A stretch of DNA of 64,000 nucleotides, from assembly GCA_043803405.1 (NCBI GenBank), contig JAZDKB010000044.1, positions 1 to 64,000 of the forward strand, in the 5' to 3' direction. Below, in pieces: positions 1,478-38,165 of the stretch (within the stretch, counting starts at the first letter, position 1; the number at the start of each line of letters is the position of its first letter). The notes beneath the pieces are model-generated. The model saw nothing but the letters and a program-made list of their open reading frames with translations, ran no database searches and was not told where the DNA came from. This stretch comes from Spirochaetota bacterium (GTDB taxonomy: Bacteria > Spirochaetota > UBA4802 > JAFGDQ01). The position numbers and the translations under genes are program-made.

Positions 1478-1504
1478 AGTTCTATTTTTAGCGGAATCGT
1501 CACA
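1478..1504 (-). promoter_or_regulatory. Putative ECF promoter motif, copy 1
   Basis: TGTGACGATT-CCGCTAAAAATA-GAACT, 70 nt upstream of the ATG at 1407. Confidence 0.75.
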
Positions 1505-1570
1505 AAAAAAATTTACACAAACAGAACAAATAGCTGCGGCCCCTTGTTCTATGGCAGCGCATATAAGCAA

Positions 1571-1604
1571 AACAAAACCGGCGGATTGCTCCGCCGGTTT
1601 TGTT
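1571..1604 (-). terminator. Intrinsic terminator (array hairpin family)
   Basis: AACAAAACCGGCGGA-TTGC-TCCGCCGGTTTTGTT perfect stem. Confidence 0.8.
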
Positions 1605-1744
1605 AAGGGTTGGAGGTGTATGCTTATCTCGATATTTTAAACTTCATATCGATTTCTAACTTTTAAAACGCCTGTATAGGACGTACAGAATATGAACTGA
1701 TTTTACTGTCATAATCTGTGCCGACTGTTGACCATCCTGCCATG

Positions 1745-2318
1745 TCATTTTTCAACTATTATTCTTATATTCAAATTGCCTCCCAGAGTGTATTCCGCAT
1801 AAGGACCATTATCTATTGAGATCCAGTTTTTATTATCTACAAGCGGACCGGCATCGACAGAACTTGCATATACTCCATTTATCGATGTAACATAACCGGC
1901 CCAGATTTCAGATACGGAATCAATTACAAATGGATTTGACAAAGTAATAGTATTCCAGCCTTTATTAAAAGTGTATGTTTGCTCAAATAGTATTATCCCC
2001 GGCGCTGTTGTTGTACCTTTTCCGTATATCCGGACTGTGAAACTATGCGTTGCGGGATTATTTCCAATATTGAAATAATTGATTTTCACCTTAGTTATCT
2101 TCCCGCCTATGTAGGGCATTAATTTAGCATTATCCAGATAAACAAGATATTCATTTATATGATTTAAATTTCCCCAGCAATTGGATGGATCACCATCGTA
2201 ACCGATTTCATGTTCTGATGCAGATGGACTTGAAGATTCTGAATCATCACTGCCGCAGGCTAAGCGCTATTGTTGTAATAAGTATTAAAACAAACATAAC
2301 TTTAAAATATATTTTCAT
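1745..2318 (-). pseudogene. Lipoprotein gene frameshifted in the signal peptide
   Basis: AGGAGGATGT-ATG at 2318 (MKIYFKVMFVLILITTIAL) is out of frame with ACGSDDSESS..., which is in frame with ORF 1745-2119; shift near 2261. Confidence 0.75.
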
Positions 2319-2351
2319 ACATCCTCCTGAATTTATTAAATGACGATTTTG

Positions 2352-2936
2352 TTAAAAAGCACGGACAGGACGAACGTAATAAGGAGTATTTTTCCCAGTT
2401 CTTGTTTTGTTGTAAAGCTTTGCAACATACGCTGTGTTTGCGTCTATTTCAGATGAACTCCAGTAATATTCATTTTCATAACCGTCCATGACGCTTATTT
2501 GATTAAATAAATCTTCAAGTTCATCAATAGATGGAAGGAACCAGTCTGTTTTACCTCCGCCATTATAGTCTCTGCAAACTTTTGCGGCACTTCCAGTATG
2601 TCCGGGTTGTGCCATAATGGCATTGGAATTTGCCAATCCTGTCCCCGGTTCAGTTGAAGTATTTCCGTTAAAATTCCACACTTGATAGTCGCCCTCTATC
2701 CAGGTCGGCTGAGGATCACCGGAACCATTCGGATTCCAGTTTGCAGGTGCTACTTCCATTCCATGCACCCCGCCGTTTGTTATGTAAAAGACAGTGCCGA
2801 CTCCGCTGGGGCCTGTATCTCCTATAGCGTACGTTGCGGCAGGCGGATTATCGCTGCCGTCGTCTCCTCCGCAGGCTATAAACAAAACTGCTCCAAACAG
2901 CATTAAAGCGAACATAGTTTTAAAATATTTTTTCAT
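2352..2936 (-). CDS. Lipoprotein with a DUF1566/Lcl-type domain
   Basis: Lipobox FIAC; DWFLPSIDEL, YWSSSE and VRPVRAF motifs; start moved to the ATG after the RBS. Confidence 0.8.
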   Translation of the reverse strand: MKKYFKTMFALMLFGAVLFIACGGDDGSDNPPAATYAIGDTGPSGVGTVFYITNGGVHGMEVAPANWNPNGSGDPQPTWIEGDYQVWNFNGNTSTEPGTGLANSNAIMAQPGHTGSAAKVCRDYNGGGKTDWFLPSIDELEDLFNQISVMDGYENEYYWSSSEIDANTAYVAKLYNKTRTGKNTPYYVRPVRAF

Positions 2937-2964
2937 ACATCCTCCTGAATTTATCAAACTGATA

Positions 2965-4098
2965 TTATCTTCCGCCTCTTACAGCCCAAAAATAACTTGA
3001 ATTTGATTTTATAACATCCTGGGATATTCCACTGCCGATCTGTAACGGCCAGACATTCGCTGTATTCGTACAATTGGTTGTAGAAGACCAGTAATTTGCG
3101 TTTGCAGCATTTTCAAAACCCTGGCTGTTGAGCCAGGATGCATTGTTATTTGATTCGAAATTACTAAGACTCAATAATTCGTTTCGGTTAGGCATGCGCC
3201 AGTCGTTATAACCGCCTGCTGATACTCCTGAACAGGATACGATAGCATTCGACCATGTGTTTAAAGTAGTACTTACTGTTTTCTGCCAGATCAATCCTGT
3301 TAAATAATCCGTAATTGTACCGTTGCCGTTATCATGGAACCTTGGATTCGGCCAGTCATAGCCCACCTGCAGGTTGCCGTCATCCCCGTCAGCATATTTT
3401 GTTGTCTGCCCCGTTTTAGGAATTTTAGGCGATGTGATGCCGCCGCGTACCGGCCACACGATAAAATAGTCGCTGTCTTTTGTGCATGGGCAGGTGTATC
3501 CACTGTTAATCCACATCCCATTAGCATAAATTGTGTTACTTGAATATGTTGTTCCGCTCCAGTAAATAAAATTTACATTGGTAAAGTAACCATGATCAGT
3601 CAACCATTGGGCAGTGTCCGCTCCCATGTTTGTTATGGAATAGAACTCATTAATATTCGGCAAACGCCAGTCATTATGCCCAAGGTAATTCTCTGTATTC
3701 AATTTTTTAATATAATCAAGCGCATGCAGCCATGTGACCATTCCGTCATTCGAAGTTGTGCCATCCAGATCAAAATTATAATCAGGGCTGGTAGGAGTCG
3801 TACTCCTGGAATACATAAGATTGGCATCGCGTGCCCAGATAAGCCCGGTGAGATTGTCTGTAACACTTGCGCTGTCCGGATTTAGCGTAAAACGCGGAGA
3901 AGGCCATACAGCCCCTTTCTGCAGGGAACCATCCTCTCTAGTATTAAGAGTGTATCCGCTTATTGCTCCTGCACCGGTTTTAGGTATCTCATAAACCCAG
4001 CTTGTTGTTGAGTGGGAAGAATCGTCTCCTCCGCAGGCTGTAAACGCCAATGCGGCAAAAAGCATTAAAATTGCAATAAATTTGAATTTTGATTTCAT
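2965..4098 (-). CDS. Lipoprotein with two DUF1566/Lcl domains
   Basis: Lipobox FTAC; two copies of TD.LTGLIW...DWR(L/M)PN..E...YWS.TT...W.VRGG. Confidence 0.85.
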   Translation of the reverse strand: MKSKFKFIAILMLFAALAFTACGGDDSSHSTTSWVYEIPKTGAGAISGYTLNTREDGSLQKGAVWPSPRFTLNPDSASVTDNLTGLIWARDANLMYSRSTTPTSPDYNFDLDGTTSNDGMVTWLHALDYIKKLNTENYLGHNDWRLPNINEFYSITNMGADTAQWLTDHGYFTNVNFIYWSGTTYSSNTIYANGMWINSGYTCPCTKDSDYFIVWPVRGGITSPKIPKTGQTTKYADGDDGNLQVGYDWPNPRFHDNGNGTITDYLTGLIWQKTVSTTLNTWSNAIVSCSGVSAGGYNDWRMPNRNELLSLSNFESNNNASWLNSQGFENAANANYWSSTTNCTNTANVWPLQIGSGISQDVIKSNSSYFWAVRGGR

Positions 4099-4220
4099 CT
4101 TTCCTCCGAAATAATATTTGAATCCTACTATATAAGAGATATAATAAGTGTGCATATACCATCTTCCCGGGCGCAGGTACATTTGCCTTAAAAGCGCCTG
4201 GATAAAACCCGAACAAAAAT

Positions 4221-5255
4221 TTAATCGGCAGACCTCGCAAGACGGAAACCCAGAGTATTGTATTCATTATATGGGGAATCCTGCCCCCCGCTGTATCCTA
4301 TCTGTAAGGTACTGCCCGAAAATAACCAGGCTCCTCCCCGTATTGCACGACTGGCTCCACTATTCCCATAGCACCATTCCCACACATTACCGGATATGTC
4401 ATAAAGTCCCAGAGCATTGGGCAAAAGACCTTTCACTGCATGAGTGGAGGATGAACTATACCAGGCTACTGCCTGATTTGCTCCTGTATTTGTGTAATCC
4501 GCCATAGCGCCGCTGGCATAATTGCCTGGATAATACTCTCCCATGTCCGATATATCGCCGTCATTGTTTGCGTCATCTATATACCGCGCGGCAAGCTCCC
4601 ATTCAAGGGCAGTAAGCATGCGGAATCCGGTAGCAGCGTAATTTTCCATGTCAACATTTCCATTGGTCGCGGCTTTTATATAGGGTTTATCCTCACTTCC
4701 GTTAGTTGTGTCAACAGAAGCTGTATTTGTCGATATACGTATGGGTATTGTATAAGCAGAATCGCTGTAATAAGCGCATGTGTAACTTGTGCTGTTCTTC
4801 TCGTTATACCATTCAGTTGCAGCGTTGCACCAGATTATGGCATCACGCCAGTTGATCATTGTTACAGGCTCCATAGTTAATGGCGAAGCAGCGCCTCCGG
4901 CACCGTCATTGCCTTCAATTCCTGTGTTTGCAAATGTATACGCATTTGTTACTCTACTAATCGCCCATTGACGAACTGTGTACCATAACTCGTAAGTCAC
5001 CTCGGTTTCACCTATCCAGAAAGCTTTACTCACTGTAGCAGTTCCACTATCATCCGTGCCTGTCTTAAAAGTCTTTCCAGGCACATAAGACATCATAAAG
5101 CCTGCGCCATCTGCATTGTAAAAAGATATATCTCCTGCCTGCAATCCTTCATCCTGATAAATATAAGAGCTTTTATCATCTCCCCCGCAGGCTGTGAAAA
5201 CAAGCGCCAGCGCAGTGATCAGCATTAAAGAAATTGCTTTTAACAAATTTTTCAT
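4221..5255 (-). CDS. Lipoprotein, FGE-sulfatase/SUMF1 (C-type lectin fold) family
   Basis: ETEVT, PNALGLYDISGNVWEWC, RGGAW and terminal GFRLARS motifs; lipobox FTAC. Confidence 0.85.
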   Translation of the reverse strand: MKNLLKAISLMLITALALVFTACGGDDKSSYIYQDEGLQAGDISFYNADGAGFMMSYVPGKTFKTGTDDSGTATVSKAFWIGETEVTYELWYTVRQWAISRVTNAYTFANTGIEGNDGAGGAASPLTMEPVTMINWRDAIIWCNAATEWYNEKNSTSYTCAYYSDSAYTIPIRISTNTASVDTTNGSEDKPYIKAATNGNVDMENYAATGFRMLTALEWELAARYIDDANNDGDISDMGEYYPGNYASGAMADYTNTGANQAVAWYSSSSTHAVKGLLPNALGLYDISGNVWEWCYGNSGASRAIRGGAWLFSGSTLQIGYSGGQDSPYNEYNTLGFRLARSAD

Positions 5256-5325
5256 ACATCCTCCAGGATTTTTATAATTATTTGATATGATTATAGTTTT
5301 CTTAAAAACATACTCTTCAGTGTGT

Positions 5326-5352
5326 AGTTCTCTTTTTGCCCAGATCGTCACA
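5326..5352 (-). promoter_or_regulatory. Putative ECF promoter motif, copy 2
   Basis: TGTGACGATC-TGGGCAAAAAGA-GAACT, 70 nt upstream of the ATG at 5255. Confidence 0.75.
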
Positions 5353-5370
5353 AAAAAAATGAGCTTTTTG

Positions 5371-5400
5371 TAAAACCGGCAGGGCAGGCCGCCGGTTTTA
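5371..5400 (-). terminator. Intrinsic terminator (array hairpin family)
   Basis: TAAAACCGGC...GCCGGTTTTA just downstream of the stop at 5424. Confidence 0.75.
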
Positions 5401-5423
5401 TATATAATATAGGCTGTCTGCTG

Positions 5424-7598
5424 CTACTGGCTAAGCCGCGCAAAATATGATTGCAATTCTTCAGTCCCGATATAGTTGAAAGACCCACCTGCGTACATCG
5501 AGCTCCCGCTTACCGCAAGAGCAAGTACAGCGTCATTTGCGTTGGGATTCCACGAAGTTGCATTTCCAGTAACTGTGTCCAGAGCTGCAATGTTGTTTCT
5601 GGCTACCGGGGTAGTGCCAATTTCCGTGAATCCCCCTCCTGCGTATACTGTACTTCCGCTTATAGCAATAGAAAATACAGTACCATTCGCGTTAGGGTTC
5701 CATGAAGTTGCATCTCCAGTCGTTACATCAAGTGCAGCAATATAGTTCCTTGTGGGCGTATTGCCTATGCTTGTAAAATTCCCTCCGGTATAAACCAGGC
5801 TTCCGCTTATGGTAATAACATATACAGTACCATTCGCATTAGGGTTCCATGCGGTTACAGCTCCTGTCGAGTCAAGTGCTGCAATATAATTTCTTGCTGT
5901 CGGTGTGCTGCCTATGCTATTGAAATCCCCGCCTGCATATATAGTGCTTCCGCTTATGGCAATAGCATATACAGTACCATTTGCGTTGGGGTTCCATGAA
6001 GTTGGAACTCCGGTCGCAGAATCAATCGCGGCAATACGATTTCTTGCTATTGGCGTGCTGCCTATTTGTGTAAAGAAGCCACCAATATATACTGTGTTCC
6101 CATTTACTGCGATAGCATAAACAGGACCACCATTTGCATTCGGATTCCATGATGTCACTGCTCCGGTTGTTGTATCAAGCGCTGCAATACAGCTTCTCGC
6201 TGCCGGTGTGCTGCCAATGCTTGTGAAAGCTCCACCAACATACACAGTGCTCCCGCTTACAGTTAAAGCATTTACAGTGCCGTTCGCATTTGGATTCCAT
6301 GAGGTCACTGTTCCGGTTGAATCAAATGCGGCCACATGGTTTCTTGTTACAGATGTTCCGCCTATGCTTGTGAATTCCCCGCCTGTATATACTGTACTCT
6401 CGCTTACCGCAAGAGCATATACATATCCATTTGCATTCGGATTCCATGAAGTTGCAGCTCCAGTTGAATCAATTGCAGCAATATACTTTCTTGCTGCGGG
6501 CGTATTTCCAATATATTGAAAACTACCTGCTGCATAAACAGTATTTCCGCTGATAACAATAGCATAGATGGCACTGTCCGCGCTGGGGTCCCAGGAAGTT
6601 ACATTGCCTGTACCTGCGTCCAGAGCAGCGATATGATTTCTTGCAGCTGTTACAGCGCCTATGCTTGAAAAATTTCCTCCCGCATATACAGTTGTACCGC
6701 TTACTGCGAGAGCTGTTACATATCCGTTTGCATTGGGATTCCAGGCAGTAACCTGTCCCATCGAATCCAGAGCAGCAATACGGTTTCTTACTGCAGGAGT
6801 GCTGCCTATGCTGGTAAAATGTCCGCCTGCGTACACAGTGCTGCCGCTTACGGTTATAGAACTAACTAACCCATTTGCGTTAGGGATCCATGTCATTACA
6901 GCCTCTCCGGTAGATGCATCCAGAGCAGCAATATTATTTCTTGTCATTGATGGGCTTCCTATGGTTGCAAATTGACCGCCTGCATATACTGTACTTCCGC
7001 TTACTGCAATGGCATGTACAGTGCCGCCGGCATTCGGGTTCCATGAAGTCGGTGCACCTGTAGATGCGTCAAGGCAGGCAATTCTGTTTCTTGTTACAGG
7101 CGTGCTGCCTATGCTTGTAAAGTTTCCGCCAATGTATACATTGCTGCCGTTTACTGTAATAACTTTTATTTCGTCATTTACGTTAGGGTTCCATGAAGGA
7201 TCAACAGTGCCGTTTGAAAGTATATGGGCAATGTTGTTGCGGGCCAATCCGCCTGCATAAGTAAATCTGCCTCCAATGTACCAGCCGTTTGCGTTATCGG
7301 ATGCAACAGCCGTAACATATCCCTTAACCTGCGGAAAAGCTGAAGCAGGTTTTCCTGTGGAAGTATCAAGCGGAACACATGGGCCTGTAAACGGCCATAA
7401 TTCTGTAAAATCTCCGCCAATATACGTGGTTCCGTCCGGTCCAACTGCAATTGCATTAACCATGCCGTTAGGCGCCATAACCGGAGCTGGACCGGCTACT
7501 CCGCCGCTGTCGCTGCTGCTTCCTCCGCCGCAGGCTGAAAAAGCAAGCGCCAGAGCAGTGATCAGCATTAAAGAAATTGCTTTTAACAAATTTTTCAT
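5424..7598 (-). CDS. Lipoprotein with about 12 beta-propeller repeats
   Basis: ~52-aa repeats WNPNANG.V.A(I/L)A(V/I)SGSTVYAGG.FTSIG...RN.IAALD; lipobox FSAC. Confidence 0.85.
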   Translation of the reverse strand: MKNLLKAISLMLITALALAFSACGGGSSSDSGGVAGPAPVMAPNGMVNAIAVGPDGTTYIGGDFTELWPFTGPCVPLDTSTGKPASAFPQVKGYVTAVASDNANGWYIGGRFTYAGGLARNNIAHILSNGTVDPSWNPNVNDEIKVITVNGSNVYIGGNFTSIGSTPVTRNRIACLDASTGAPTSWNPNAGGTVHAIAVSGSTVYAGGQFATIGSPSMTRNNIAALDASTGEAVMTWIPNANGLVSSITVSGSTVYAGGHFTSIGSTPAVRNRIAALDSMGQVTAWNPNANGYVTALAVSGTTVYAGGNFSSIGAVTAARNHIAALDAGTGNVTSWDPSADSAIYAIVISGNTVYAAGSFQYIGNTPAARKYIAAIDSTGAATSWNPNANGYVYALAVSESTVYTGGEFTSIGGTSVTRNHVAAFDSTGTVTSWNPNANGTVNALTVSGSTVYVGGAFTSIGSTPAARSCIAALDTTTGAVTSWNPNANGGPVYAIAVNGNTVYIGGFFTQIGSTPIARNRIAAIDSATGVPTSWNPNANGTVYAIAISGSTIYAGGDFNSIGSTPTARNYIAALDSTGAVTAWNPNANGTVYVITISGSLVYTGGNFTSIGNTPTRNYIAALDVTTGDATSWNPNANGTVFSIAISGSTVYAGGGFTEIGTTPVARNNIAALDTVTGNATSWNPNANDAVLALAVSGSSMYAGGSFNYIGTEELQSYFARLSQ

Positions 7599-7668
7599 AC
7601 ATCCTCCAGGATTTTTATAATTATTTGATATGATTATAGTTTTCTTAAAAACATACTCTTCAATATGT

Positions 7669-7695
7669 AGTTCTATTTTTGCCCAAATCGTCACA
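7669..7695 (-). promoter_or_regulatory. Putative ECF promoter motif, copy 3
   Basis: TGTGACGATT-TGGGCAAAAATA-GAACT, 70 nt upstream of the ATG at 7598. Confidence 0.75.
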
Positions 7696-8668: not shown

Positions 8669-8693
8669 CAGCTAAAGCAAAACCTGCGGCCGC

Positions 8694-10101: not shown

Positions 10102-10124
10102 TTCGCTTTCTTGTTAGCAAGGAA

Positions 10125-10982
10125 CTATTTAATAAGCTTCAGTTTTTTGAGACTGCATTCAGCGCACTTTTTCTGATATTTTGATGAACTTGTACTGCTT
10201 GTTTTGCTCATCGTAATCGACTTGTCCGGCAGATTATTCAGAAAATCCAGATCAGGCACTCCGCCACTTGTGCAATCCCAGATCACATCCTGAATAGCCT
10301 GATAATCAGAGTATTCAAGCTGGGCAAAATCTACTCCAGCCAGTATGTCCATTATTTCGGAAAGACAGCCCGTGCCAGTCGGTAGTACAATGTTATATCC
10401 TGTATAGTAAGCTTCTTCATCAGGTGCATGTGCACTTAAATTGAGGCAGAACACGGGGAGACATGTTGTTTTTGTTTGCTGCGAAGTGATGGTAATCGTT
10501 ACTTCTTTGATTATCATCATTGGCTGATAACCGCTGTCGCTCGGTACGAAAGTCAAGCCTGCCGGAAGGGTAACAGTTACAGTGCTTGTGGTTGTGTTTG
10601 TTAAAGTGATGGTAATTAGAAAAGAAGATGTCATGTCGCAACCGGCATAACAGGCCTCACTGCAGCTTTCATAAGTTGCCTCCAGCGCTGCTGCCTGAGC
10701 ATCATAGTTCGGATCGTCCGGATCAAGACCTGCCAGTTGTGTCTGCCAGGTATTATAGCAGCTTATATCACATGCGTAGCTCATACAGTTGCTATCATAT
10801 TGCATATAGCAGCTGTAGCTGTCGCCGCTCACTGTCGCGTTTACACCGTTCGGTAAAAGAACGCCTCCGTTAAACACAGGCGTACTTCCGCCTCCGCTGC
10901 TATCGCTGCTGCTGCCGCCGCATGCTGTAAAAATAAATGCTGTGGCGAGCGTAATTGCAAAAAGTTTAAATAATTTGTTCAT
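10125..10982 (-). CDS. Cys-rich lipoprotein with a possible thioester-domain-like region
   Basis: Lipobox FTAC; YQPMM, VFCLN and IQDVIW motifs. Confidence 0.75.
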   Translation of the reverse strand: MNKLFKLFAITLATAFIFTACGGSSSDSSGGGSTPVFNGGVLLPNGVNATVSGDSYSCYMQYDSNCMSYACDISCYNTWQTQLAGLDPDDPNYDAQAAALEATYESCSEACYAGCDMTSSFLITITLTNTTTSTVTVTLPAGLTFVPSDSGYQPMMIIKEVTITITSQQTKTTCLPVFCLNLSAHAPDEEAYYTGYNIVLPTGTGCLSEIMDILAGVDFAQLEYSDYQAIQDVIWDCTSGGVPDLDFLNNLPDKSITMSKTSSTSSSKYQKKCAECSLKKLKLIK

Positions 10983-11182: not shown

Positions 11183-11209
11183 AGTGCTCATTTTGCTCAA
11201 ATCGTCACA
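11183..11209 (-). promoter_or_regulatory. Putative ECF promoter motif, copy 4 (GCACT variant)
   Basis: TGTGACGATT-TGAGCAAAATGA-GCACT. Confidence 0.65.
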
Positions 11210-14035: not shown

Positions 14036-14062
14036 AGTTCAGGTTTTGTCCGAATCGTCACA
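14036..14062 (-). promoter_or_regulatory. Putative ECF promoter motif, copy 5
   Basis: TGTGACGATT-CGGACAAAACCT-GAACT. Confidence 0.75.
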
Positions 14063-14980: not shown

Positions 14981-16663
14981 TTACTTGCTTACCCAGAATT
15001 TAAATACTCCGCGGGAATTATTTAGAACAGAGCCTCCGGTTGCTTTCTCACAAGCAAAAAATCTTGGATTGCCATTTGTTATTTGACACCACTTTGCCGA
15101 CGTTCCGCCGCTTGTTTTGGTCTGTATTACAAGATTATCTGTACCATTATAATAAAACGGAGTGCTAAGCGGGATCTCAATCCAGTCGCCTCCCAGCAGA
15201 TTAGCAGATAAATTAAACGTATTATTGAAAACAGTAGTTCCTCCAGCCACATTAGTTGCATCATCAGCCACAAGGGAATTTTGTGTTGTATGCGCAAGAA
15301 TTACAGTAAAGTCCGGATATGCAATAGGAACAGAACCGCTCGAAGAAGATAACCGGAATGCGAGCCTGGTTATAGAACCTGATGTTCCTAGTTCTGCAGC
15401 GCGTAAAATAAACTGGTATCCTCCGGATGAGTTACCGAAGACAGTAGCGTCTCCGTCATACTTATCGATCACGTCCATTGTCCCGCCATAGAAGCGAAAT
15501 ACTGGTTCAAATCCTCTATCCATGAGTGAACCATTTGTCGCATTAAGAGTAGCCGCTAAAAGCGTGCGGTCTGTCGAGATGTCTTCATAATCAACAGCAT
15601 AACTTGCAGAACTTGTGCATGATATATCTATAAGCAAGTTGCTTGTACCGTCATAGGTAAAGCTTCCGATATTAAACGGTATCCATACTGCAGAAGTACT
15701 TCCAGCCGGAATATGATATGCAAGATTCTGTGTTACGGTTACAGGAGTAACTCCGCCATAATTAACCGAAAATTGATTGCTTGTCAGTGTAGTTGTGCTT
15801 GATGGCAAATGTGCAATCTTTACACTCAGTTCCGTAATATCCGATGAAGCAGTTGTAGTACTGGGTCTGATTGCCATACCGGTTATCATGCCAGATCCAT
15901 TAATATCAGAAGCTAAAATCAGCATCTGTGTACGGCCTGTCTCTCCTGGAGCTATACTATTCCCGTTATCACCATCAGAATCCGCGCAGATTATATTGTT
16001 ATCCCCGCCAGCGAATGTAAATTTAGCGTTATGAACCCATTTTTCAACAGATCCAGTTGTGTTGCCTGATGTATATGACCAGAGTGTCGAGTCGTCAACC
16101 AAACCCCCTTGAATTCCGTCATAAACATCCCCTGAGCAGGCTGCAGTCCTTTCGAACTCAACAATTAAATTATCCACTCCGTTATAATCGAACGGAGTTG
16201 TAAACGTGATATTATGCCATGTGCCTGCCGCATCTGCAGGAAATGTCACAGTTCCATTCGATAAGACAGTTGTTTGTCCTCCCTTCCCATTCGAAACATT
16301 ATTAGCGAATGTGTCTGTAACAGCCGAAAGGCTGGTATGGCCTAATTTAATCGTAAGGTTGGTACAGGTTACATTTGTTCCCAATCCTGTATGATATTGA
16401 ATCGCAATACCTGTGATCTTTCCCGAAGCATTTATTGCGCTGTTTGTACTGCCGCTTGCCTTATACAGACTTTGCCAGTGAGCATAAACACTAGATTGAT
16501 TAAATGAACCTGCATAGTTGCTGCTAACATTACTGGCTATTTTCGTAAACGTCCCAGCGGGCGTGGCACCCGGACCGCTGTCGCTGCTGCTCCCGCCGCC
16601 GCAGGCTGTAAAAAGAAACGCTGTAGCGAGCGTAATTGCAAAAAGTTTAAATAATTTGTTCAT
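14981..16663 (-). CDS. Lipoprotein with three tandem beta-sandwich repeats
   Basis: Three copies of Q.L..AS...SG.IT..A...W..I.F...F.Y.G..NL(I/V); lipobox FTAC. Confidence 0.8.
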   Translation of the reverse strand: MNKLFKLFAITLATAFLFTACGGGSSSDSGPGATPAGTFTKIASNVSSNYAGSFNQSSVYAHWQSLYKASGSTNSAINASGKITGIAIQYHTGLGTNVTCTNLTIKLGHTSLSAVTDTFANNVSNGKGGQTTVLSNGTVTFPADAAGTWHNITFTTPFDYNGVDNLIVEFERTAACSGDVYDGIQGGLVDDSTLWSYTSGNTTGSVEKWVHNAKFTFAGGDNNIICADSDGDNGNSIAPGETGRTQMLILASDINGSGMITGMAIRPSTTTASSDITELSVKIAHLPSSTTTLTSNQFSVNYGGVTPVTVTQNLAYHIPAGSTSAVWIPFNIGSFTYDGTSNLLIDISCTSSASYAVDYEDISTDRTLLAATLNATNGSLMDRGFEPVFRFYGGTMDVIDKYDGDATVFGNSSGGYQFILRAAELGTSGSITRLAFRLSSSSGSVPIAYPDFTVILAHTTQNSLVADDATNVAGGTTVFNNTFNLSANLLGGDWIEIPLSTPFYYNGTDNLVIQTKTSGGTSAKWCQITNGNPRFFACEKATGGSVLNNSRGVFKFWVSK

Positions 16664-19410: not shown

Positions 19411-19437
19411 AGTTCAATTTTTAGCCGAATCGTCACA
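19411..19437 (-). promoter_or_regulatory. Putative ECF promoter motif, copy 6
   Basis: TGTGACGATT-CGGCTAAAAATT-GAACT facing the RCC1 gene. Confidence 0.75.
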
Positions 19438-19573: not shown

Positions 19574-19600
19574 TGTGACGATTCGGCTAAAAATTGAACT
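19574..19600 (+). promoter_or_regulatory. Putative ECF promoter motif, copy 7
   Basis: Identical to copy 6 but on the + strand, facing the FecR gene. Confidence 0.75.
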
Positions 19601-20794: not shown

Positions 20795-22216
20795 ATGAAA
20801 AAACAAACAAAGATCTCTCTCTTGATTTTTTTCTTCTTTATCATGGCAAACACAGCTTTTGCAGAATACGTGTTTTTACGGGACGGTTCAATCGTTAAAT
20901 GCAAAATCGAAAGTGAGACTGCGGCAACTATTACTGCGCGGCTTGCGGACGGCAAACAAATGACGATCAGCCCTAAAAACGTTATACGTATTCTATACAC
21001 AGAGCTTTACATGGGTAAGATATTTATAAATAAAACCGATGGAACAGTAATAGAAGCATACATGGTAGATGAGGATCAGACTACTTATACATTGAGAAAA
21101 GAACTGTACAAGCCGCAGGAATTTATAATTAAGCGCGACGAAGTTCTTTTTACTACGCGCAAAAATCCTTCGGGACTTATCGGGAAAGCAAAGGATGACA
21201 GAATTGAAATTACATGGAAAGCCCCGTATACTCCTGTTAATAATTATAAAGTTTATTTTAGAAGCACCGGCGAGTTCAAGCTTCATGGTACAACAGGAAG
21301 CACAAGCTATACTTTAAAAGGGCTGCGCGGCAGCACTCATTACACTATTAAAGTTACAGCGATCGACAAACAGGGAGATGAGTCGCTGCCTACAAATGAA
21401 TTTAAGATTAAGACAGAGAACAAGCCTCCGGATTCGCCCGGTTACGTTAGAGCGTCTGTTAAACCCGATAAAAGCGGCCAGAAAATGACTGCGAAGATTA
21501 CATGGAAGGCAGCCTTTGACGCGGACGGATCTATTACCGGCTACCGTATATACAGATCGGATGTTAAGGGCTATACACAGGTTGGCGAGACGAACAAAAA
21601 TACGTACGAAATAAAAAATCTTGATGCAGATAAAAGCTATCGCTATGCAGTGCGGTCAATTGATGACAAGAACCTCGAATCGGAAAACAGCAGGCTGGTT
21701 GCGGCAACGCTTCTCAAGGGATACGAAGCCGGAGTGGAGTTCAGCTACATTAAGCCATTCGGTGATTTTAAGAAGATAAACGAATCCGGGTTCGGGGGGC
21801 TCGTCAGCTTCTCAAAGACTGACGCGCTGTTTTACGATATGGTTATCGGGCTTGCGGTCGGTTACTGGAAGTTCAGCGGAGCAACCGACGTAGACTCGTC
21901 GTACATGATTCCCTTAATGGCAACAGCGACGTACAGATACGAAGCGTTCGATTCGTTCTTTATCGCGCCCAGAGTGGCGCTCGGGATGAGCTACAACAGT
22001 GTAAGCTACTACTGGGAATCCCCGTCCTTTACAGGCACAAAAGAGAAAAAATCCAGAAGCGGTATTGAGCCAATTGTAATGGCAGGATTATCTTTTAATT
22101 ATGAGTTCGCAGATTACTGGACAGTCGGTCTGGGGGCGAACTACGGCTTTGTTTATGAGACAGACGGGCTAATGAACTTTGTAACCGGCAGCCTTACTGC
22201 TGCAAGAAAATTTTAG
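20795..22216 (+). CDS. Outer-membrane protein: small N-terminal beta domains, two FN3 domains, C-terminal beta-barrel
   Basis: Signal peptide AFA; ITWKAP...YTIKVTAID and ITWKAA...YRYAVRSID FN3 patterns; amphipathic strands ending in Phe. Confidence 0.75.
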   Translation: MKKQTKISLLIFFFFIMANTAFAEYVFLRDGSIVKCKIESETAATITARLADGKQMTISPKNVIRILYTELYMGKIFINKTDGTVIEAYMVDEDQTTYTLRKELYKPQEFIIKRDEVLFTTRKNPSGLIGKAKDDRIEITWKAPYTPVNNYKVYFRSTGEFKLHGTTGSTSYTLKGLRGSTHYTIKVTAIDKQGDESLPTNEFKIKTENKPPDSPGYVRASVKPDKSGQKMTAKITWKAAFDADGSITGYRIYRSDVKGYTQVGETNKNTYEIKNLDADKSYRYAVRSIDDKNLESENSRLVAATLLKGYEAGVEFSYIKPFGDFKKINESGFGGLVSFSKTDALFYDMVIGLAVGYWKFSGATDVDSSYMIPLMATATYRYEAFDSFFIAPRVALGMSYNSVSYYWESPSFTGTKEKKSRSGIEPIVMAGLSFNYEFADYWTVGLGANYGFVYETDGLMNFVTGSLTAARKF

Positions 22217-22239: not shown

Positions 22240-23355
22240 ATGAAAACATTATTTAAGATATTGATGGCTTTGTTTGCTTTGACATTTGCAGGCTGTGGAG
22301 ACACATATAACGATGTACTTAATGATCTGGAAGAAGAGTATAAATATTTCCTCGCAATATTTAATTCCCCTAATGCCGGTGGCAGATATATTTCAACTTT
22401 TTCGTTAAATTCAGATGGAGCCTTGAGTCCGGCATTTGAATCAACAGATTATTCAGCTGCAGGCACATACCCGGACGCACATCCAAATGGGAAATATTTA
22501 TATGGTCTAATTTCAGATACAGCAAAGTTAAACGTATATACTGTCAGCGATGAAGGAATCTTGAGTTTGTCTTCAACCGCAGATACCGGTACATATCCTT
22601 ATGTAGTAAAAGTACACCCATCCGGTAAATATGTGTATGTTTCTAACAGCAGCGGTTATTCCATATCAATGTACATAGTTAATGCTGATGGAACATTGAC
22701 AAGCAATGGAACACTTTCTATAGGAAGTCCTTACAGACCGCGTAGAATGTCGTTTCATCCTTCAGGAAATTATCTCTATGTTGCAATTATATATCCTACC
22801 TGGAACGCAAGTTATTTTTCGTCGTTCAGTGTGAATAATGATGGGACTTTAACTCCAGTCGAATCACTAGTGGAAGTAATTACTGGTACTCCTTCAATAA
22901 CCACATTTGATATTGCAGTACATCCTAACGGACAGTTCCTCTATGTGACACAAAGCAATGCGGATATTTATAAATATAAGATTGAGAATGATGGAACTAC
23001 CAGCGCCAAATTAAATGCAGGGAGTTCCGGGAGCAGCAATGTTAGTTTAGCTATTCATCCTAATGGAAATTATTTATATGCTATTGGTTATAATATTTTG
23101 ACAAACTACCAGATCAATCAAACAGATGGTACTTTATCATCTATTAGTGGCTTCATTGCTACTGGTGAAAATGAAGCTGTCGTTCATCCAAATGGCAAGT
23201 ATCTTTACAAAACAGATTACAGCAACAGTGCCATTCAGTGCTACACAATAAACGGGAATGGTTCAATTGATAATTCAAATATGATTAGTTATCAAATAAC
23301 CGATTATATCTATTACCCTTCTCACCTTGTCCTGTTCAGAAAGAAAAGCGGTTAA
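22240..23355 (+). CDS. Lactonase-family beta-propeller lipoprotein
   Basis: Lipobox FAGC; repeated HP(N/S)G.YLY. Confidence 0.8.
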   Translation: MKTLFKILMALFALTFAGCGDTYNDVLNDLEEEYKYFLAIFNSPNAGGRYISTFSLNSDGALSPAFESTDYSAAGTYPDAHPNGKYLYGLISDTAKLNVYTVSDEGILSLSSTADTGTYPYVVKVHPSGKYVYVSNSSGYSISMYIVNADGTLTSNGTLSIGSPYRPRRMSFHPSGNYLYVAIIYPTWNASYFSSFSVNNDGTLTPVESLVEVITGTPSITTFDIAVHPNGQFLYVTQSNADIYKYKIENDGTTSAKLNAGSSGSSNVSLAIHPNGNYLYAIGYNILTNYQINQTDGTLSSISGFIATGENEAVVHPNGKYLYKTDYSNSAIQCYTINGNGSIDNSNMISYQITDYIYYPSHLVLFRKKSG

Positions 23356-23377
23356 ATTTTTCAATTAAAGAGCATTT

Positions 23378-24676
23378 ATGAAAACACTCATCAAAACAAC
23401 AATATTGCTATTAGGTATAAGTTTCAGCAGCTGCTGGAACATGTTCAACGATACGATAGATGATCTTGGGAAAACTGTTTCACCTGAAAGCATTACTGCC
23501 TTTTCAATAGAAGAACCAACCAGCGGTGTACCGGTTAACGGAATTATTAGCGGAGTGAATATAACAGTATCGCTTCCGGAGGGAGTATCACTTACTAATT
23601 TAATTGCGACATTTACCCATACAGGAACGGAACTAAGAATAGGAAGCACCGTACAGGTAAGCGGTGTAACAGCTAATAATTTTGCGACTTCCCAGTTATA
23701 CATATTATATGATTCGAATGGTCTAACCAAAAATTATATGGTCAATGTCCGTACTAAAAGCTGGACAGCAAAAACAAGCGGGTTGCCTGTAAGCGGTACA
23801 GAATGGTCGTCAATTACTTCTTCATCCGACGGTAATAGACTGGCAGCAGCGATATCCAGTTATGGAGATGGCATATATGTATCTGCAAACGGAGGTACAG
23901 ATTGGACACATTTAACTACTATAAGCGGAGTATCACGCTCTATTGCTTCGTTGGCTGACGGAACATGTCTTTCAATCGCAGCAGGCTGGGGTGATATGGA
24001 TCCAGACTATGTATATACCTCGCTAGATTCCGGATTATCATGGACAACTCATAACGCCGCTGTAGGGGGATCTAACGAATGGTCATCCATTGCGTCATCA
24101 TCAGACGGCACTTATGTAATTGCAGCACAAAGCAGAAACACGGATGGAGACGGCTATATCTATATTGGTGAATATGACGGCGATACCTGGGCATGGGATC
24201 AGACTCAACCAGCAATACTAAGCTGGAAAGGCGTTGCTTCATCAAGTACCGGATTATATATGGTTGCTGTAGCCGACGGCGGGAATATTTATACTTCTGT
24301 CAATGGCGGATCAAACTGGACATCCAGAGAATCGGTGCGGGCGTGGAGCTCGGTAGCTTCATCATCAAATGGAACAATTCTATATGCAACAGTATATGGC
24401 GGTCAAATTTACAGATCAATAAACAGCGGAGTTAACTGGACTTCAATAAATGCTTCAAATCAGAACTGGAAGTCTATTGCCTGCTCTAGTGACGGGACTA
24501 CAGTTGTTGCAGCAGTTGAAGGAGGAACTATTGTATCATCCATAAACAGCGGTACGAACTGGATAAGTCATTCAAGTGCCGGCTCACACGACTGGAGGTC
24601 AGTAACAATGCCAGCAGATGGAAGCAGATTTGCTGCAGTTGCTTATAATGAAAGATATGTTTATATTTATGACTAA
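23378..24676 (+). CDS. Lipoprotein with an Ig-like domain and BNR/WD40-like propeller
   Basis: Lipobox FSSC; WSSIASSSDG and S.(D/N)(S/G)G..W Asp-box repeats. Confidence 0.8.
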   Translation: MKTLIKTTILLLGISFSSCWNMFNDTIDDLGKTVSPESITAFSIEEPTSGVPVNGIISGVNITVSLPEGVSLTNLIATFTHTGTELRIGSTVQVSGVTANNFATSQLYILYDSNGLTKNYMVNVRTKSWTAKTSGLPVSGTEWSSITSSSDGNRLAAAISSYGDGIYVSANGGTDWTHLTTISGVSRSIASLADGTCLSIAAGWGDMDPDYVYTSLDSGLSWTTHNAAVGGSNEWSSIASSSDGTYVIAAQSRNTDGDGYIYIGEYDGDTWAWDQTQPAILSWKGVASSSTGLYMVAVADGGNIYTSVNGGSNWTSRESVRAWSSVASSSNGTILYATVYGGQIYRSINSGVNWTSINASNQNWKSIACSSDGTTVVAAVEGGTIVSSINSGTNWISHSSAGSHDWRSVTMPADGSRFAAVAYNERYVYIYD

Positions 24677-24781
24677 ATGGCTTGTTTATAATTTATAATT
24701 TTTACAACAAGCTATGCAGACTAAAACAAACTGTTAAATAAAGTTATTTCTAAAAATAAATATCTTAACTGTGGAGATCTT

Positions 24782-25894
24782 ATGAAAATATTCCTTAAAG
24801 TGATTATATTTCTAATTGTTTTGTATTCCACAGGCTGCTGGAACATGTATAACGATACGATAGATGATCAAGAAGCAGAATATCAGTTTTATTTAGCAAT
24901 AGTTAATTCAATGATGAATTACAAAATTTCGATTGTTTCCATAGAGTCAACCACACTCAGTAAATCATCACAAACATCAACAGGTAGTACCCAAGTAGAC
25001 TATGTCGCTGCACACCCGACAGGAAATTATCTATATGTTACTAATCCGGGTAGTCAAAGGATTTTAATGTATAAAGTAGTTACCAATGGTACACTTGAAG
25101 TGTTAGGTACAGGTTTTATTAATACAACAGATGGAGGGGGACCAGGTGGGACACCTGGCGTAATAAAAGTGCATCCATCTGGAAATTATGCTTTTGTCGC
25201 TAATGCAGGTACTAGTTTTAATATTTCAAGGTATCTAATTGATAGTGCAGGTACTCTTACTTTTCAAGATTACATAAGTCCAGGAGCGTCAGCAACATCA
25301 TCTAGGATGGTTATTGATAAGTCAGCAACATATCTATATTGGGTTAGTAACAATGCTGGTGGTAATGTTTTACAACAAGTTGAAATTAGTGGTTCGCTAA
25401 TTATAGATAAAACAGTAAGTTATGCAAGTAATACTCCAAGAGATGTTGCCGTGCATCCAAATGGACAATATATATATGTGACTGTAGACGGAACTATATA
25501 TTTATACTATAGTAATGACATACCTACCTCACATGGATCTATTGCTGGCGATGGTATGTTAACTATTCATCCTAATGGTAAATTCCTCTATACTGACGAT
25601 GATTCCAATGTTAAAGTATATCAAATCAATGCAGATGGAACATTAACCGATCTTAATAACTCAACTCCGGTACAAGCCGATGTTAAAGATTTTATTATTG
25701 ACACTAATGGTAATTACTTAATTGCATCTGGTCGAGGTAGTGATTCTATTGAATATTTAAAAATAAATGCAGATGGAACAACTAGCCCTATACAATATTA
25801 TGATGGTGGTTTTGGTCATTATCCCAATGCTTTAGATGGATATAGATCAAGTCCATGTGGTCTAGCTTTAATCAACAGACAAAAAATCAAATAA
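24782..25894 (+). CDS. Lactonase-family beta-propeller lipoprotein
   Basis: Lipobox STGC; HP.G.Y.Y repeats; similar to 22240-23355. Confidence 0.8.
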   Translation: MKIFLKVIIFLIVLYSTGCWNMYNDTIDDQEAEYQFYLAIVNSMMNYKISIVSIESTTLSKSSQTSTGSTQVDYVAAHPTGNYLYVTNPGSQRILMYKVVTNGTLEVLGTGFINTTDGGGPGGTPGVIKVHPSGNYAFVANAGTSFNISRYLIDSAGTLTFQDYISPGASATSSRMVIDKSATYLYWVSNNAGGNVLQQVEISGSLIIDKTVSYASNTPRDVAVHPNGQYIYVTVDGTIYLYYSNDIPTSHGSIAGDGMLTIHPNGKFLYTDDDSNVKVYQINADGTLTDLNNSTPVQADVKDFIIDTNGNYLIASGRGSDSIEYLKINADGTTSPIQYYDGGFGHYPNALDGYRSSPCGLALINRQKIK

Positions 25895-36040: not shown

Positions 36041-36141
36041 TTTATTTTTATTTGGAAATATATTTTGTATTTAAAAAATAAAAAAGGGGATACAGGTTTT
36101 ATTATAATTCCATATCCCCTTAGTATTTCCATCCATTATAA

Positions 36142-36606
36142 TTAGCTGGATTTCAATACTGATTCGATATTGTTTAAAACATCGTTGTGATTTACTTTTT
36201 CAGATGTGAATATTTTTGAGAAATTTGACTGAAGTTTTGAATAGAAGGTCGATCTTTCAGTTTCTTTAACCTGCATTAGAACTGCGAATGTGTTCAAATA
36301 CTCTCCATTGCCTTTAGCAACATCCTTTGCAAGGTTGTCCATATTGTCTGCAACGAACTTGTTGATCTGTTCGTTTGACGCAATAGAATTCCATGCCTTG
36401 CAGTTTGATGTCCCAGTAGTAATCGCGGAGATTTGGCCGGATGTTCCGTTTAATGTTGCAGCGCATGTCTGTGAAAGCAATCCTTCCTTTCCCTGGAAGA
36501 CTATTGAACCGAGACCGCATCCGTAATTGCTTTGGTCAGCGTAAAGAGTTGCGCCAAAAGCAATTACAGCTGCGATTGCAACTAAAACAACTAAAAATCT
36601 CTTCAT
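36142..36606 (-). CDS. DUF3015 family protein
   Basis: GCGLGS, ITTGTSNC and D.AKGNGEYL motifs. Confidence 0.85.
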   Translation of the reverse strand: MKRFLVVLVAIAAVIAFGATLYADQSNYGCGLGSIVFQGKEGLLSQTCAATLNGTSGQISAITTGTSNCKAWNSIASNEQINKFVADNMDNLAKDVAKGNGEYLNTFAVLMQVKETERSTFYSKLQSNFSKIFTSEKVNHNDVLNNIESVLKSS

Positions 36607-36911
36607 ATTTTAACTCCTTGAAATTAAGATATAAATTTATAGCGTAAACTAATTATATTTGCGCTATAGATTTCTGTGTTATGTATAAAAAACGGTGTTT
36701 TATTAATAATTACACTGCGGAAATGGAGTTCTTTAGCATAGATGGGAAACAATTCTTAGTTAAATATGCTCAAAAACATACTATAATTTTTCAGATTTGT
36801 CAAGTAGATTATTATAACCAGGAATCAAGCAGATACATGGTAGCATTAATATTCGTAGTTGGCAAACTACCGGCAGCTGCCGTATAAAGATGTGAGAAAC
36901 TCAAGGGTAGC

Positions 36912-36941
36912 TAGAACAAGGGGTTGCAACCCCTTGTTCTA
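36912..36941. repeat. REP-like palindrome
   Basis: TAGAACAAGGGGTTGCAACCCCTTGTTCTA. Confidence 0.7.
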
Positions 36942-37030
36942 TGTAATCAGCACCCTCTTCCCTTAATATATAATACATTTGTAACAAGTTTCTCAGAAGT
37001 CAGCAAATTTTGTTGACCATACTGTAGAAT

Positions 37031-37594
37031 CTATTTCTCAACACGCTTAATCATCTTTATCTGCTTTGCCGGAACGGAGATAGTGCCGTTTGCAGTATTA
37101 AGTATGTAGGCCTTGCCCCGTGATTTGATGCTTCCGTAGTATTTTTTTCCGCTGTATAAAATAATCTCGTATACGGGAGCTTTTACCTGTTCTTTGGCAG
37201 GTTCTATTTTTTTATCCTGAAGTTCAGTTAAAGGATTATTCTCTTCAGTTATAGAATCGACAGTTTCTTCAACTATAACAGGTATATCCGGCGCTGTATA
37301 TTGCTTTACAATAACATAAATGCCGCCTGCGGCAGCGCCCGTTGTGAGCACAGTAGCTGTAATAGCCGCGGCATTGGCAAATGAGACAGCAAACTTAAGT
37401 CCAATTTTTCTGAGCCTGAAAATAATAAAAAGCAATAAGCTGAACCAGATTGAATAAGCGCCGACTTTTTTTAAAGTAGCCCTTAATACTCTGGCGCGCG
37501 ATTTCAGCATCATTTTCCGCGCGGGCTCAGGTATTGGGTTAACAAACTTAAATTTCTCAAAAAGCTTTTCCAGACGGGCAGTTTCTGTTGTCAT
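37031..37594 (-). CDS. Putative membrane anti-sigma factor
   Basis: ATGA overlap with the ECF sigma stop; hydrophobic segments, linker and small C-terminal beta domain. Confidence 0.65.
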   Translation of the reverse strand: MTTETARLEKLFEKFKFVNPIPEPARKMMLKSRARVLRATLKKVGAYSIWFSLLLFIIFRLRKIGLKFAVSFANAAAITATVLTTGAAAGGIYVIVKQYTAPDIPVIVEETVDSITEENNPLTELQDKKIEPAKEQVKAPVYEIILYSGKKYYGSIKSRGKAYILNTANGTISVPAKQIKMIKRVEK

Positions 37595-38112
37595 AATATA
37601 TCCTCAATATGAGCAATGCCCTTTTCCTTCAGAAGCGATGTAATTCCGGAAGCAAGCTTTGTATACTTGTACTCGACTTTTCTTTTAGTCAGTCCCATTA
37701 TGTCAGCGGTCTCGGAATAACTGTATTTATGGAATGCAATTAATTCGAACATGTTTTTTTCTTCCTCATTGGATAAGACTTTGTCCAGCACTTCGCCTAT
37801 TATGATCCTTGTATCGCGAAAGCCGTTAACAAAGCTGAGAGCCGCGTCTTCCATAAAGTTTTCTATATTTTCATTACCGGAGTATTTCTCCTTATAATAT
37901 TTTAACACAAAATTTTTTAATGTCCCGTAAAGCCAGGCTCGTATGTTCTTTATCTCATCAAGATGATTATAAAGCGCAATGAAAACTTCCTGGCAAATAT
38001 CTTCAGTATCGTGCTCGGAGCTTATCTTAGTATAAACGGCATTAAACACCATCGGATAATAATCGACAAACAGTTTGGAAAAGACATTGCGCTTCCCGGA
38101 TTTGCTCGACAT
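37591..38112 (-). CDS. ECF (sigma-70 group 4) sigma factor
   Basis: EDICQEVFI...AWLYG (region 2) and YSYSETADIMG (region 4). Confidence 0.9.
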   Translation of the reverse strand: MSSKSGKRNVFSKLFVDYYPMVFNAVYTKISSEHDTEDICQEVFIALYNHLDEIKNIRAWLYGTLKNFVLKYYKEKYSGNENIENFMEDAALSFVNGFRDTRIIIGEVLDKVLSNEEEKNMFELIAFHKYSYSETADIMGLTKRKVEYKYTKLASGITSLLKEKGIAHIEDIL

Positions 38113-38138
38113 GTGAACTACAGCCTTCTTATTAATTA

Positions 38139-38165
38139 AGTTCCCGATTTGTTAAAATCGTCTCA
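38139..38165 (-). promoter_or_regulatory. Putative ECF promoter motif, copy 8 (autoregulatory position)
   Basis: TGAGACGATT-TTAACAAATCGG-GAACT, 26 nt upstream of the sigma ATG. Confidence 0.7.

Follow-up and report, generated by a model that had tools for sequence, protein, structure and literature searches.

Genes and motif copies in the window

The window analysed here, a 64,000-nt stretch of contig JAZDKB010000044.1 of a Spirochaetota bacterium (GCA_043803405.1), carries an extracytoplasmic function (ECF) σ factor gene together with the gene of its membrane partner, an operon encoding a FecR-domain protein and a predicted outer-membrane barrel, and an array of lipoprotein genes. Copies of one bipartite motif stand in front of these genes. 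A preliminary description of the window had proposed that this σ factor transcribes itself, its membrane partner, the lipoprotein array and the FecR/outer-membrane protein operon, forming one switch which could remodel the cell surface. This interpretation is partly supported by our analysis and appears to be largely right yet incomplete. In the following, G000 denotes this genome (3.98 Mb), C-numbers denote its contigs (C44 bears the σ gene of the window) and G003 and G004 are two congeners.

A regular-expression scan with TG[TA]GACGAT[TC]-N12-G[AC]ACT gave exactly eight matches in the window, all at the places already named and all with the 12-nt spacer (8/8). The distances given below were measured from the last base of the motif to the ATG supported by a ribosome-binding site (RBS).

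1478..1504, minus strand: predicted GAACT-class promoter, 70 nt to the ATG of a 362-aa lipoprotein
5326..5352, minus strand: predicted GAACT-class promoter, 70 nt to the ATG of an FGE-sulfatase lipoprotein
7669..7695, minus strand: predicted GAACT-class promoter, 70 nt to the ATG of a 724-aa lipoprotein
11183..11209, minus strand: predicted promoter of the GCACT variant, 200 nt to the ATG of a 285-aa lipoprotein
14036..14062, minus strand: predicted GAACT-class promoter, 290 nt to the ATG of an 825-aa lipoprotein
19411..19437, minus strand: predicted GAACT-class promoter, 367 nt to the ATG of an RCC1-repeat lipoprotein
19574..19600, plus strand: predicted GAACT-class promoter of the FecR/barrel operon, 102 nt to the ATG
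38139..38165, minus strand: predicted autoregulatory promoter of the σ gene, TGAGACGATT-N12-GAACT, 26 nt to the ATG

The spacing of 70 nt for three copies and of 26 nt for the eighth was reproduced with the RBS-supported starts. The positions named before are the low ends of the six minus-strand array copies but the high end of the eighth. With the same starts all copies are intergenic (8/8), as had been stated, although longer GTG/TTG open reading frame (ORF) calls overlap two of them. Six copies precede lipoprotein genes of the array, and four lipoprotein or lipoprotein-like genes there (14981-16663, 8694-9821, 2965-4098 and 2352-2936) lack one. Under an order-3 Markov model the window should contain 0.0003 matches and the genome 0.018, compared with 8 and 11 observed, and chance is excluded as the source of the motif.

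The genes of the σ operon and of the FecR/barrel operon are as follows.

37591..38112, minus strand: ECF σ factor, 173 aa (Sigma70_r2 1.6e-10; TIGR02937 58.9 bits, cut-off 42.9)
37031..37594, minus strand: membrane partner, probable anti-σ factor, 187 aa, overlapping the σ gene
19703..20605, plus strand: FecR-domain lipoprotein-like protein, 300 aa (PF04773 1.1e-13)
20795..22216, plus strand: predicted outer-membrane protein (NF047433 41.8 bits, cut-off 43)
22240..25894, plus strand: three lipoproteins after the barrel (22240-23355, 23378-24676 and 24782-25894), two lactonase-type propellers

The σ factor consists of regions σ2 and σ4 only (PF04542 41 bits, cut-off 24; PF08281 21.8 bits, below the cut-off of 25.7). 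The partner is composed of a conserved N-terminal domain, a hydrophobic segment and a C-terminal small β domain. It has no Pfam match and hence no FecR domain; its single-sequence model (predicted local distance difference test, pLDDT, 55.8) was of low confidence and was not used.

Eight paralogous σ factors and the −10 classes

Eight paralogous pairs of a σ factor and a membrane partner are encoded in G000, the other σ factors being 36-47% identical to that of the window. The genome-wide scan showed that the motif extends beyond the window: the exact sequence TTGTGACGATY occurs at 28 sites (2.1 expected), 24 of which have CT at exactly the spacing of the motif, and among these 24 the three bases ahead of CT vary. 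A relaxed search found 49 sites. Thirty-six of them fall into five classes located ahead of secreted proteins or σ factors, and 12 of the 13 remaining sites lie inside long ORFs. The GAACT class comprises 12 sites, among them those in front of the C44 and C41 σ genes, plus the variants GCACT, GGACT and GAGCT, and is present on four contigs besides that of the window. The [A/C]TGCT/ATACT class (11 sites) includes the promoter of the C30 σ gene, and the five TCGCT sites are all located on C7 along with the C7 σ gene. The ACGCT class has three sites, and the C27 σ gene carries ACGCT behind a degenerate −35 element. Two TCACT sites precede the C19 σ gene and a gene 4.6 kb downstream, while the C39 and C18 σ genes carry CCACT and CTACT, respectively. 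Five −10 pentamers were shown to stand behind a shared −35 element, each of them matching the site upstream of a σ gene.

The class sites are mostly positioned ahead of lipoproteins or other secreted proteins (rough background 148/2384 ORFs). Promoters of two different classes stand in tandem before two of the genes (C27 90403/90467 and C6 69682/69736), and the same passenger is found under GAACT and under CTGCT (59% identity). The eight σ factors are likely to tell surface-protein gene sets apart by a three-base promoter code. The TCGCT-class σ gene (G000:C7:52027-52548) has no ATG, GTG or TTG at the expected N-terminus, but an ATT after a GGAGG box, which suggests a non-canonical start.

Conservation of the motif across the order and covariation with σ residues

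The σ family was found in 81/122 genomes of the order (189 matches) and, at 1e-20, in none of the 255 genomes sampled elsewhere in the phylum. Loci were collected as 30 + 100 loci or regions from 150 of the 189 matches, plus G000 and further database and metagenome loci. Filtering left 164 σ factors, 156 of which were non-redundant at 95%, and 153 had enough upstream DNA. In an expectation-maximisation (EM) search seeded on the sites of the window, with the three variable bases unscored, a site above the threshold of 10 bits was found upstream of 94/153 family σ genes and of 3/153 shuffled sequences. The conserved bipartite site at the own gene predicts autoregulation. The motif also stands upstream of the orthologous σ genes in both congeners. 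Alignment of the family revealed a conserved NGFR motif in the σ2-σ4 linker and a specificity loop about 3 residues shorter than in SigR/SigW.

This family of alternative σ factors of uncultured spirochaetes is apparently undescribed, as judged by comparison with the descriptions of the numbered ECF groups rather than with the group hidden Markov models (HMMs). None of the titles or abstracts retrieved in literature searches concerned it, although an ECF group description could have been missed. In the part of the supplement of Casas-Pastor 2021 covered here the genus-named spirochaete entries are those of Leptospira, Turneriella and Treponema, and the passages of that study seen do not describe a spirochaete motif of this type.

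Covariation between promoter bases and σ residues was analysed with 88 confident sites (score >10, 20-75 nt from the anchor). The column with the highest mutual information was residue 71 for −10 positions 1-2 and residues 68 and 46 for position 3, whereas residues 144, 147 and 143 were the top columns for −35 positions 3, 4 and 6; the strongest raw covariation of the variable bases is thereby with residues of σ2.4 and σ4.2. At −10 position 2, K71 goes with A (6/7), R71 with G (5/5), E71 with C (16/19) and D71 with T (15/19); in the −35 element, E147 goes with G (20/28) and R147 with C (23/37). With the 71 sites from outside the G000 family as training set, the right base was obtained from residue 71 for 7/8 and from residue 68 for 6/7 of the G000 σ factors, the columns having been chosen on the set that included G000. 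On the basis of the HMMER register and of the RpoE numbering, we take residues 71, 46 and 147 to be equivalent to RpoE Asn84, Lys56 and Arg171. Residue 68 is an additional covarying position in this family that distinguishes it from the ECF code of Todor 2020 (PMC7776599). In that study specificity is assigned to RpoE Asn84 (−12/−13), Lys56 (−11/−12) and Arg171 (−31), and the positions equivalent to these three likewise covary with promoter bases here. The terms 'Spirochaet' and 'paralog' do not occur in the main text of Todor 2020.

The expected position of the transcription start was also reflected in the sequences. The purine fraction after CT is 0.44-0.53 at 7-8 nt and rises up to 0.76-0.85 at 9-10 nt. 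In the σH structure, as reported in 10.1101/534826, T−10 and T−9 are unwound, and this geometry would place +1 at 9-10 nt after CT. For the σ gene of the window the start is predicted about 9 nt past the last T (~38130). The conservation of the upstream site, the covariation with σ residues and the rise in purines, all of them computational, support the reading of the motif as an ECF promoter.

Two different functions of the motif have to be weighed against these results. It could be an operator for a LuxR-type or other regulator, with a housekeeping σ factor acting on the AT-rich stretch after CT; a LuxR gene does lie inside the array both here and in G003, and several copies are followed by a TATA-like sequence. 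The motif, however, is non-palindromic and strictly oriented, with two blocks and a free spacer; it stands ahead of family σ genes throughout the order, and its bases change with the residues of the σ factor. Moreover, none of the 60 examined out of 64 σ70-type sites overlaps a motif copy on the copy's own strand. The operator reading was rejected on the grounds of the oriented, non-palindromic form and of the covariation, and we consider it very improbable. Alternatively, the copies could be by-products of duplicated cassettes of promoter, leader and signal peptide, or recombination sites which shuffle lipoprotein passengers. The copies are indeed not all independent: the leader (~100 nt) and signal peptide behind 7695 are almost identical to those behind 5352, and the copies at 19437 and 19574 are inverted copies identical over 34 nt. 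Signal peptides are also shared, and the arrays differ between the congeners. Yet duplication accounts for the spread of the copies and not for their retention. Conservation is limited to two blocks around a variable spacer and persists upstream of diverged σ genes, and a Pfam scan covering 50 proteins of the window detected no recombinase, only a DDE transposase. The recombination-site reading was rejected for these last reasons, and the alternative as a whole is hardly probable at all.

The probable reader of GAACT

The assignment of a single σ factor to the GAACT class within G000 is ambiguous because the C41 paralogue carries the same GAACT promoter. Its σ2.4 residues are similar, T64/N67/K71 being like those of the σ factor of the window. 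The congeners proved to be informative in this respect. Orthologues of the window's σ factor are present in G003 (75%) and G004 (83%), with a GAACT promoter upstream in both. G003 has three family σ factors (the orthologue, a CTACT type and a TCACT type) and G004 two (the orthologue and a CTACT type); no second, C41-type GAACT σ factor was found in these genomes, which are 90-93% complete. The exact sites are GAACT (5×), TAACT and TCACT in G003 and GAACT (4×) in G004, whereas a reversed-pattern control gave 0. The motif also stands upstream of lipoprotein arrays and FecR/barrel operons in both congeners, the counterparts of the FecR/barrel operon promoter being GAACT in G004 and GAACA in G003. 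On contig C31 of G003 the σ gene, the partner gene, the FecR/barrel operon, a LuxR gene and a homologous array all lie within 17 kb. Since congeners without a C41-type σ factor keep the GAACT targets, the σ factor of the window is favoured as their reader. Exact matches to GAAC[T/G] were present in 6/122 genomes of the order; of the three outside the genus, two have it just upstream of a family σ gene.

It is improbable that the array is read chiefly by C41, or that the paralogues freely cross-read each other's promoters through the shared −35 element and CT. Besides the GAACT site and the σ2.4 residues of C41, the deviant −35 element of the window's own σ promoter (TGAGAC) and the single-base variants among the targets (GCACT, GGACT, GAGCT and ATACT) would fit such a view. 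It is opposed by the retention of targets and synteny in the congeners and by the G at −35 position 4 of the targets, the base commonest with E147, which is the residue of the window's σ factor, whereas C41 has Q147 and C. Furthermore, C44 and C41 are the sole pair with an identical −10 among 59 within-genome paralogue pairs, compared with 8.2% expected at random, kin pairs being non-independent.

Several observations weigh against the assignment of the motif to the window's σ factor, in addition to the GAACT site of C41. The missing C41-type paralogue may be an assembly gap, as G003 and G004 are only 90-93% complete. After correction for kinship, only 1-5 independent pairs on supported branches were left, most of which pointed the expected way (p 0.5-1), and the choice of the hold-out columns was not independent of G000. 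The EM search was seeded with the window's own sites, and 59/153 σ genes had no site above the threshold. The ACGCT-class pattern was not enriched across the order (20 compared with ~21 in the control). The ATG of the C30 σ gene (G000:C30:8501-9046) begins 7 nt past the T and precedes the predicted start; its transcript may be leaderless, or the start may clip the codon. Beside one of the G003 sites no secreted protein was called. Finally, G061 has a GAACG match without a family σ factor at 1e-20; this match overlaps a start codon and is probably due to chance.

Taking these points together, we estimate the probability that the motif is a bipartite ECF promoter with the window's σ factor as a reader at roughly 0.78. 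This σ factor is likely the primary reader of GAACT and C41 a probable second input to the class. The earlier notion of this σ factor as one switch is not supported in that form: two σ factors share GAACT, and six further paralogues have other pentamers.

According to the proposed mechanism, the window's σ factor, probably together with C41, would transcribe its own operon, the barrel/FecR relay operon and the set of surface-lipoprotein genes. Region σ4.2 would read the T-tract/TGTGACG −35 element and σ2.4 the three variable duplex bases ahead of the invariant CT, which would be flipped out at −10/−9, with transcription beginning about 9 nt after the T. The paralogues would be largely insulated from each other by these three bases (GAA, ACG, [A/C]TG, TCA and TCG; also CCA and CTA).

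The membrane partner and the barrel

An ORF encoding the same N-terminal domain directly follows the σ gene in 142/142 cases in which a following ORF was present; 14/156 σ genes had none in the fetched DNA. A hydrophobic segment follows this domain in the partners inspected. The membrane protein encoded next to the σ factor is its probable anti-σ factor, and would likely sequester it by means of the conserved N-terminal domain. The periplasmic parts of the partners (n=142) are CsgG/TolB_N/FlgO-like (82), small β (19), FecR (17), FecR plus small β (4) or unclassified (20).

In the window, the partner, the FecR protein and the barrel protein all have the small β domain; in the FecR protein (19703..20605) it forms the C-terminus, which is matched by the C-terminal domain of the partner at 3.4e-7. 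'Sm/SH3-like' would be a tentative label for this domain. The model of the barrel protein (20795..22216; pLDDT 88.2, 19-sequence alignment) comprises two small β domains, two FN3 domains and an 8-stranded barrel of the OmpA/NspA type, which aligns with NspA (1p4t) over 152 residues (Z 19.3, root mean square deviation 2.8). A sequence search of the PDB with the N-terminal domains gave nothing convincing, a fold search barely reached residues 1-99, and no relative of the barrel was confirmed among viral contigs. In G058, G059, G067, G119 and G121 the barrel family reaches 11-14 copies, well above the number of family σ factors. A third FecR/barrel/lipoprotein operon of G000 (C48:63641-71629) has no adjoining family σ gene, and no class promoter was found upstream of it.

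The types of partner and barrel domains were compared at 141 loci, the window's own locus being excluded. Among the CsgG-type partners, 53 were accompanied by a neighbour whose N-terminal domain is CsgG-like, and 6 of the small-β partners by a small-β barrel, so that the types agree in 59/59 typed loci and none is crossed. By hhalign the CsgG-like domains of partner and neighbour are related with a probability of 98%. A less favourable picture is given by the 82/141 loci for which no pairing was possible, many of them no longer than 2 kb, and by the small β domains of partner and barrel, for which hhalign gave only 78%. The agreement could alternatively result from shared ancestry.

This domain agreement may indicate a split trans-envelope relay from surface lipoprotein to barrel to anti-σ factor, in which the periplasmic domain of the partner would couple to the homologous domain of the neighbouring 8-stranded barrel; each of the eight σ factors is predicted to be connected in this way to an outer-membrane sensor of its own. 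This coupling is the weakest step of the argument, and we give it slightly less than an even chance. The FecR/outer-membrane protein operon does have a predicted GAACT promoter, as proposed for an output of the σ factor, but it would be better read as the σ factor's own signal relay, through which the arrival of a signal would lead to positive feedback. The three lipoproteins encoded at 22240-25894 have in common an acidic stretch after the Cys and are candidate surface sensors. Such a stretch is also present in barrel-operon lipoproteins of G000 contigs C18, C48 and C30, while the array lipoproteins have a Gly/Ser linker instead; the acidic stretch after the lipidated Cys is possibly a barrel-targeting signal.

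Provided that the promoter reading is right, the barrel could also be a device for surface display or anchoring of the downstream lipoproteins rather than a relay. Lipoproteins with a shared N-terminal stretch do follow barrel genes, and the barrel family outnumbers the σ factors in some genomes (up to 14 copies). We regard this as the less likely reading in view of the 8-stranded OmpA/NspA-type model and of the 59/59 agreement of domain types. To our knowledge, barrels of this class are not known as protein channels.

If the relay exists, the whole may be an order-specific modular kit, an idea we put forward tentatively and with somewhat more doubt than the relay itself. Surface lipoproteins would load onto the barrel, the periplasmic domain of the barrel would pair homotypically with the same domain of the anti-σ factor, as in a split Dma that has two interchangeable coupling domains, and the freed σ factor would pick its gene set by the −10 code. 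Input type and output code would recombine independently, GAACT having been seen with both partner types (3 and 2), and a few promoter-base changes would be enough to rewire genes or to wire them doubly.

Comparison with known systems

Autoregulated ECF σ factors with lipoprotein regulons are already known, so the core claim of the preliminary description is of a known kind. Leptospira interrogans σX (LIMLP_03680), as described in PMC7708080, forms an operon with the transmembrane anti-σ factor Rsx (LIMLP_03685), is autoregulated and has a lipoprotein regulon. The present system is similar in that a spirochaete ECF σ factor and its membrane partner share an operon, and autoregulation and a lipoprotein regulon are predicted. 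The σX promoter TG[A/G]CAC-N15/16-TCGTT given there has the same geometry as TGTGAC-N16-NNNCT and comes closest to the TCGCT class. Rsx also has a C-terminal periplasmic domain related to that of the partners, but these score far below the NF047528 cut-off of 200 (22.1 bits for the C-terminal 56 aa of the window's partner and 49.6 bits for that of C18), and their cytoplasmic domain was not found in 12 Rsx-family loci. The family σ factors form a clade separate from the σ factors beside Rsx homologues in a quick tree of 35 rows (SH-like approximate likelihood ratio test 99), and σX/Rsx differs from the eight paralogues with their −10 code, larger arrays and co-encoded barrel.

The σI/RsgI set of Clostridium thermocellum, in the account of PMC6056542, consists of about 8 paralogous σ factors (36-45% identity), each with a membrane anti-σ factor. 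As here, each of its promoters has a common part and a part that confers specificity, and surface or secreted proteins make up the regulons. The −10 CGAA is common to the σI factors, which are told apart by the −35 element (PMC6056542), whereas here the arrangement is reversed, the −35 element being largely shared and the upstream −10 bases differing. The family described here, in contrast to σI, consists of σ2/σ4 ECF factors of a diderm spirochaete lineage.

The Dma/ECF21 system of Bacteroidota resembles ours, according to what is reported in PMC10927553, by an ECF σ factor, an inner-membrane anti-σ factor and an 8-stranded barrel proposed as a sensor. Dma is a single polypeptide in that report, while the anti-σ factor (37031-37594) and the barrel (20795-22216) are encoded by separate genes here; their matching periplasmic domains come in two interchangeable types, and the contact is predicted. 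The proposed link to the barrel also resembles cell-surface signalling that dispenses with TonB. The layout of an N-terminal domain, a transmembrane segment and a periplasmic part is shared with FecI/FecR/FecA and Leptospira LIC12757/LIC12756 (ECF229), as far as these are covered in PMC12655853 and PMC13118517. The FecR domain occurs in the co-regulated lipoprotein-like protein and in 21/142 partners, including that of C18. The window's partner lacks it, however, and the outer-membrane protein is an OmpA-type barrel and not a TonB-dependent receptor, none of which was detected by the Pfam scan among 50 window proteins. The TonB-dependent receptors of Leptospira are described in PMC12655853 as devoid of the usual signalling extension.

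What is unusual is the presence in one genome of eight paralogous σ factors whose promoters and targets can be read from the sequence and which are apparently insulated by three −10 bases. This set mirrors the case of clostridial σI, lends itself to testing the ECF specificity code and is a candidate source of orthogonal switches. The agreement between the domains of anti-σ factor and barrel offers a testable route to TonB-independent surface signalling in spirochaetes.

The array genes and other features of the window

The lipoproteins encoded by the minus-strand array (319-19043) resemble one another in their signal peptides, while their passengers vary (RCC1, Lcl_C, FGE-sulfatase and propeller-like repeats).

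319..1407, minus strand: lipoprotein, 362 aa, 63% identity to a G003 array gene
2352..5255, minus strand: probable operon of an FGE-sulfatase-domain lipoprotein (4221-5255) and Lcl_C lipoproteins (2965-4098 and 2352-2936)
5424..7598, minus strand: repeat (propeller-like) lipoprotein, 724 aa, the one with 59% identity to a CTGCT-class gene, on C33
7892..8668, plus strand: LuxR-family regulator within the array (PF00196), 56% identity to its counterpart in the G003 array
10125..10982, minus strand: lipoprotein, 285 aa
11268..13745, minus strand: repeat lipoprotein, 825 aa, 50% identity to a G003 array gene
14981..16663, minus strand: lipoprotein, 560 aa, no motif copy of its own
16797..19043, minus strand: RCC1-repeat lipoprotein, 748 aa (PF00415), RBS-supported start

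The lipoprotein gene at 14981..16663 is possibly co-transcribed from the promoter at 19437; its homologues stand behind GAACT-class sites in G003, G004 and C12. Leaders of 200-367 nt separate promoter and start codon at 10983-11182, 13746-14035 and 19044-19410. They possibly constitute a second layer of control, and an Rfam search of the window, long leaders included, gave no match. A GC-rich, terminator-like hairpin with T/A tails is repeated between array genes (1571-1604, 10074-10101 and 14881-14907).

A 141-bp repeat (window 1-141) is common to the ends of contigs C12, C7, C41 and C50 and breaks the assembly beside lipoprotein arrays; the contig joins pass through this repeat and are hence uninformative. 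A DDE transposase gene (PF13751/PF05598; 27122-28681) and a probable insertion sequence remnant (26233-26640) belong to an insert between the σ gene and the FecR/barrel operon, most of which is absent in G003. Genes for a Lnb_N/DUF7840 protein and a DUF3015 protein (34115-36606) follow the σ operon on the same strand. Three small gene pairs resembling toxin-antitoxin modules (RelE/YafQ-like by appearance) were also noted, at 14218-14705, 29000-29443 and 30502-31136; the third has a PIN domain, and one pair sits inserted in the lipoprotein array.

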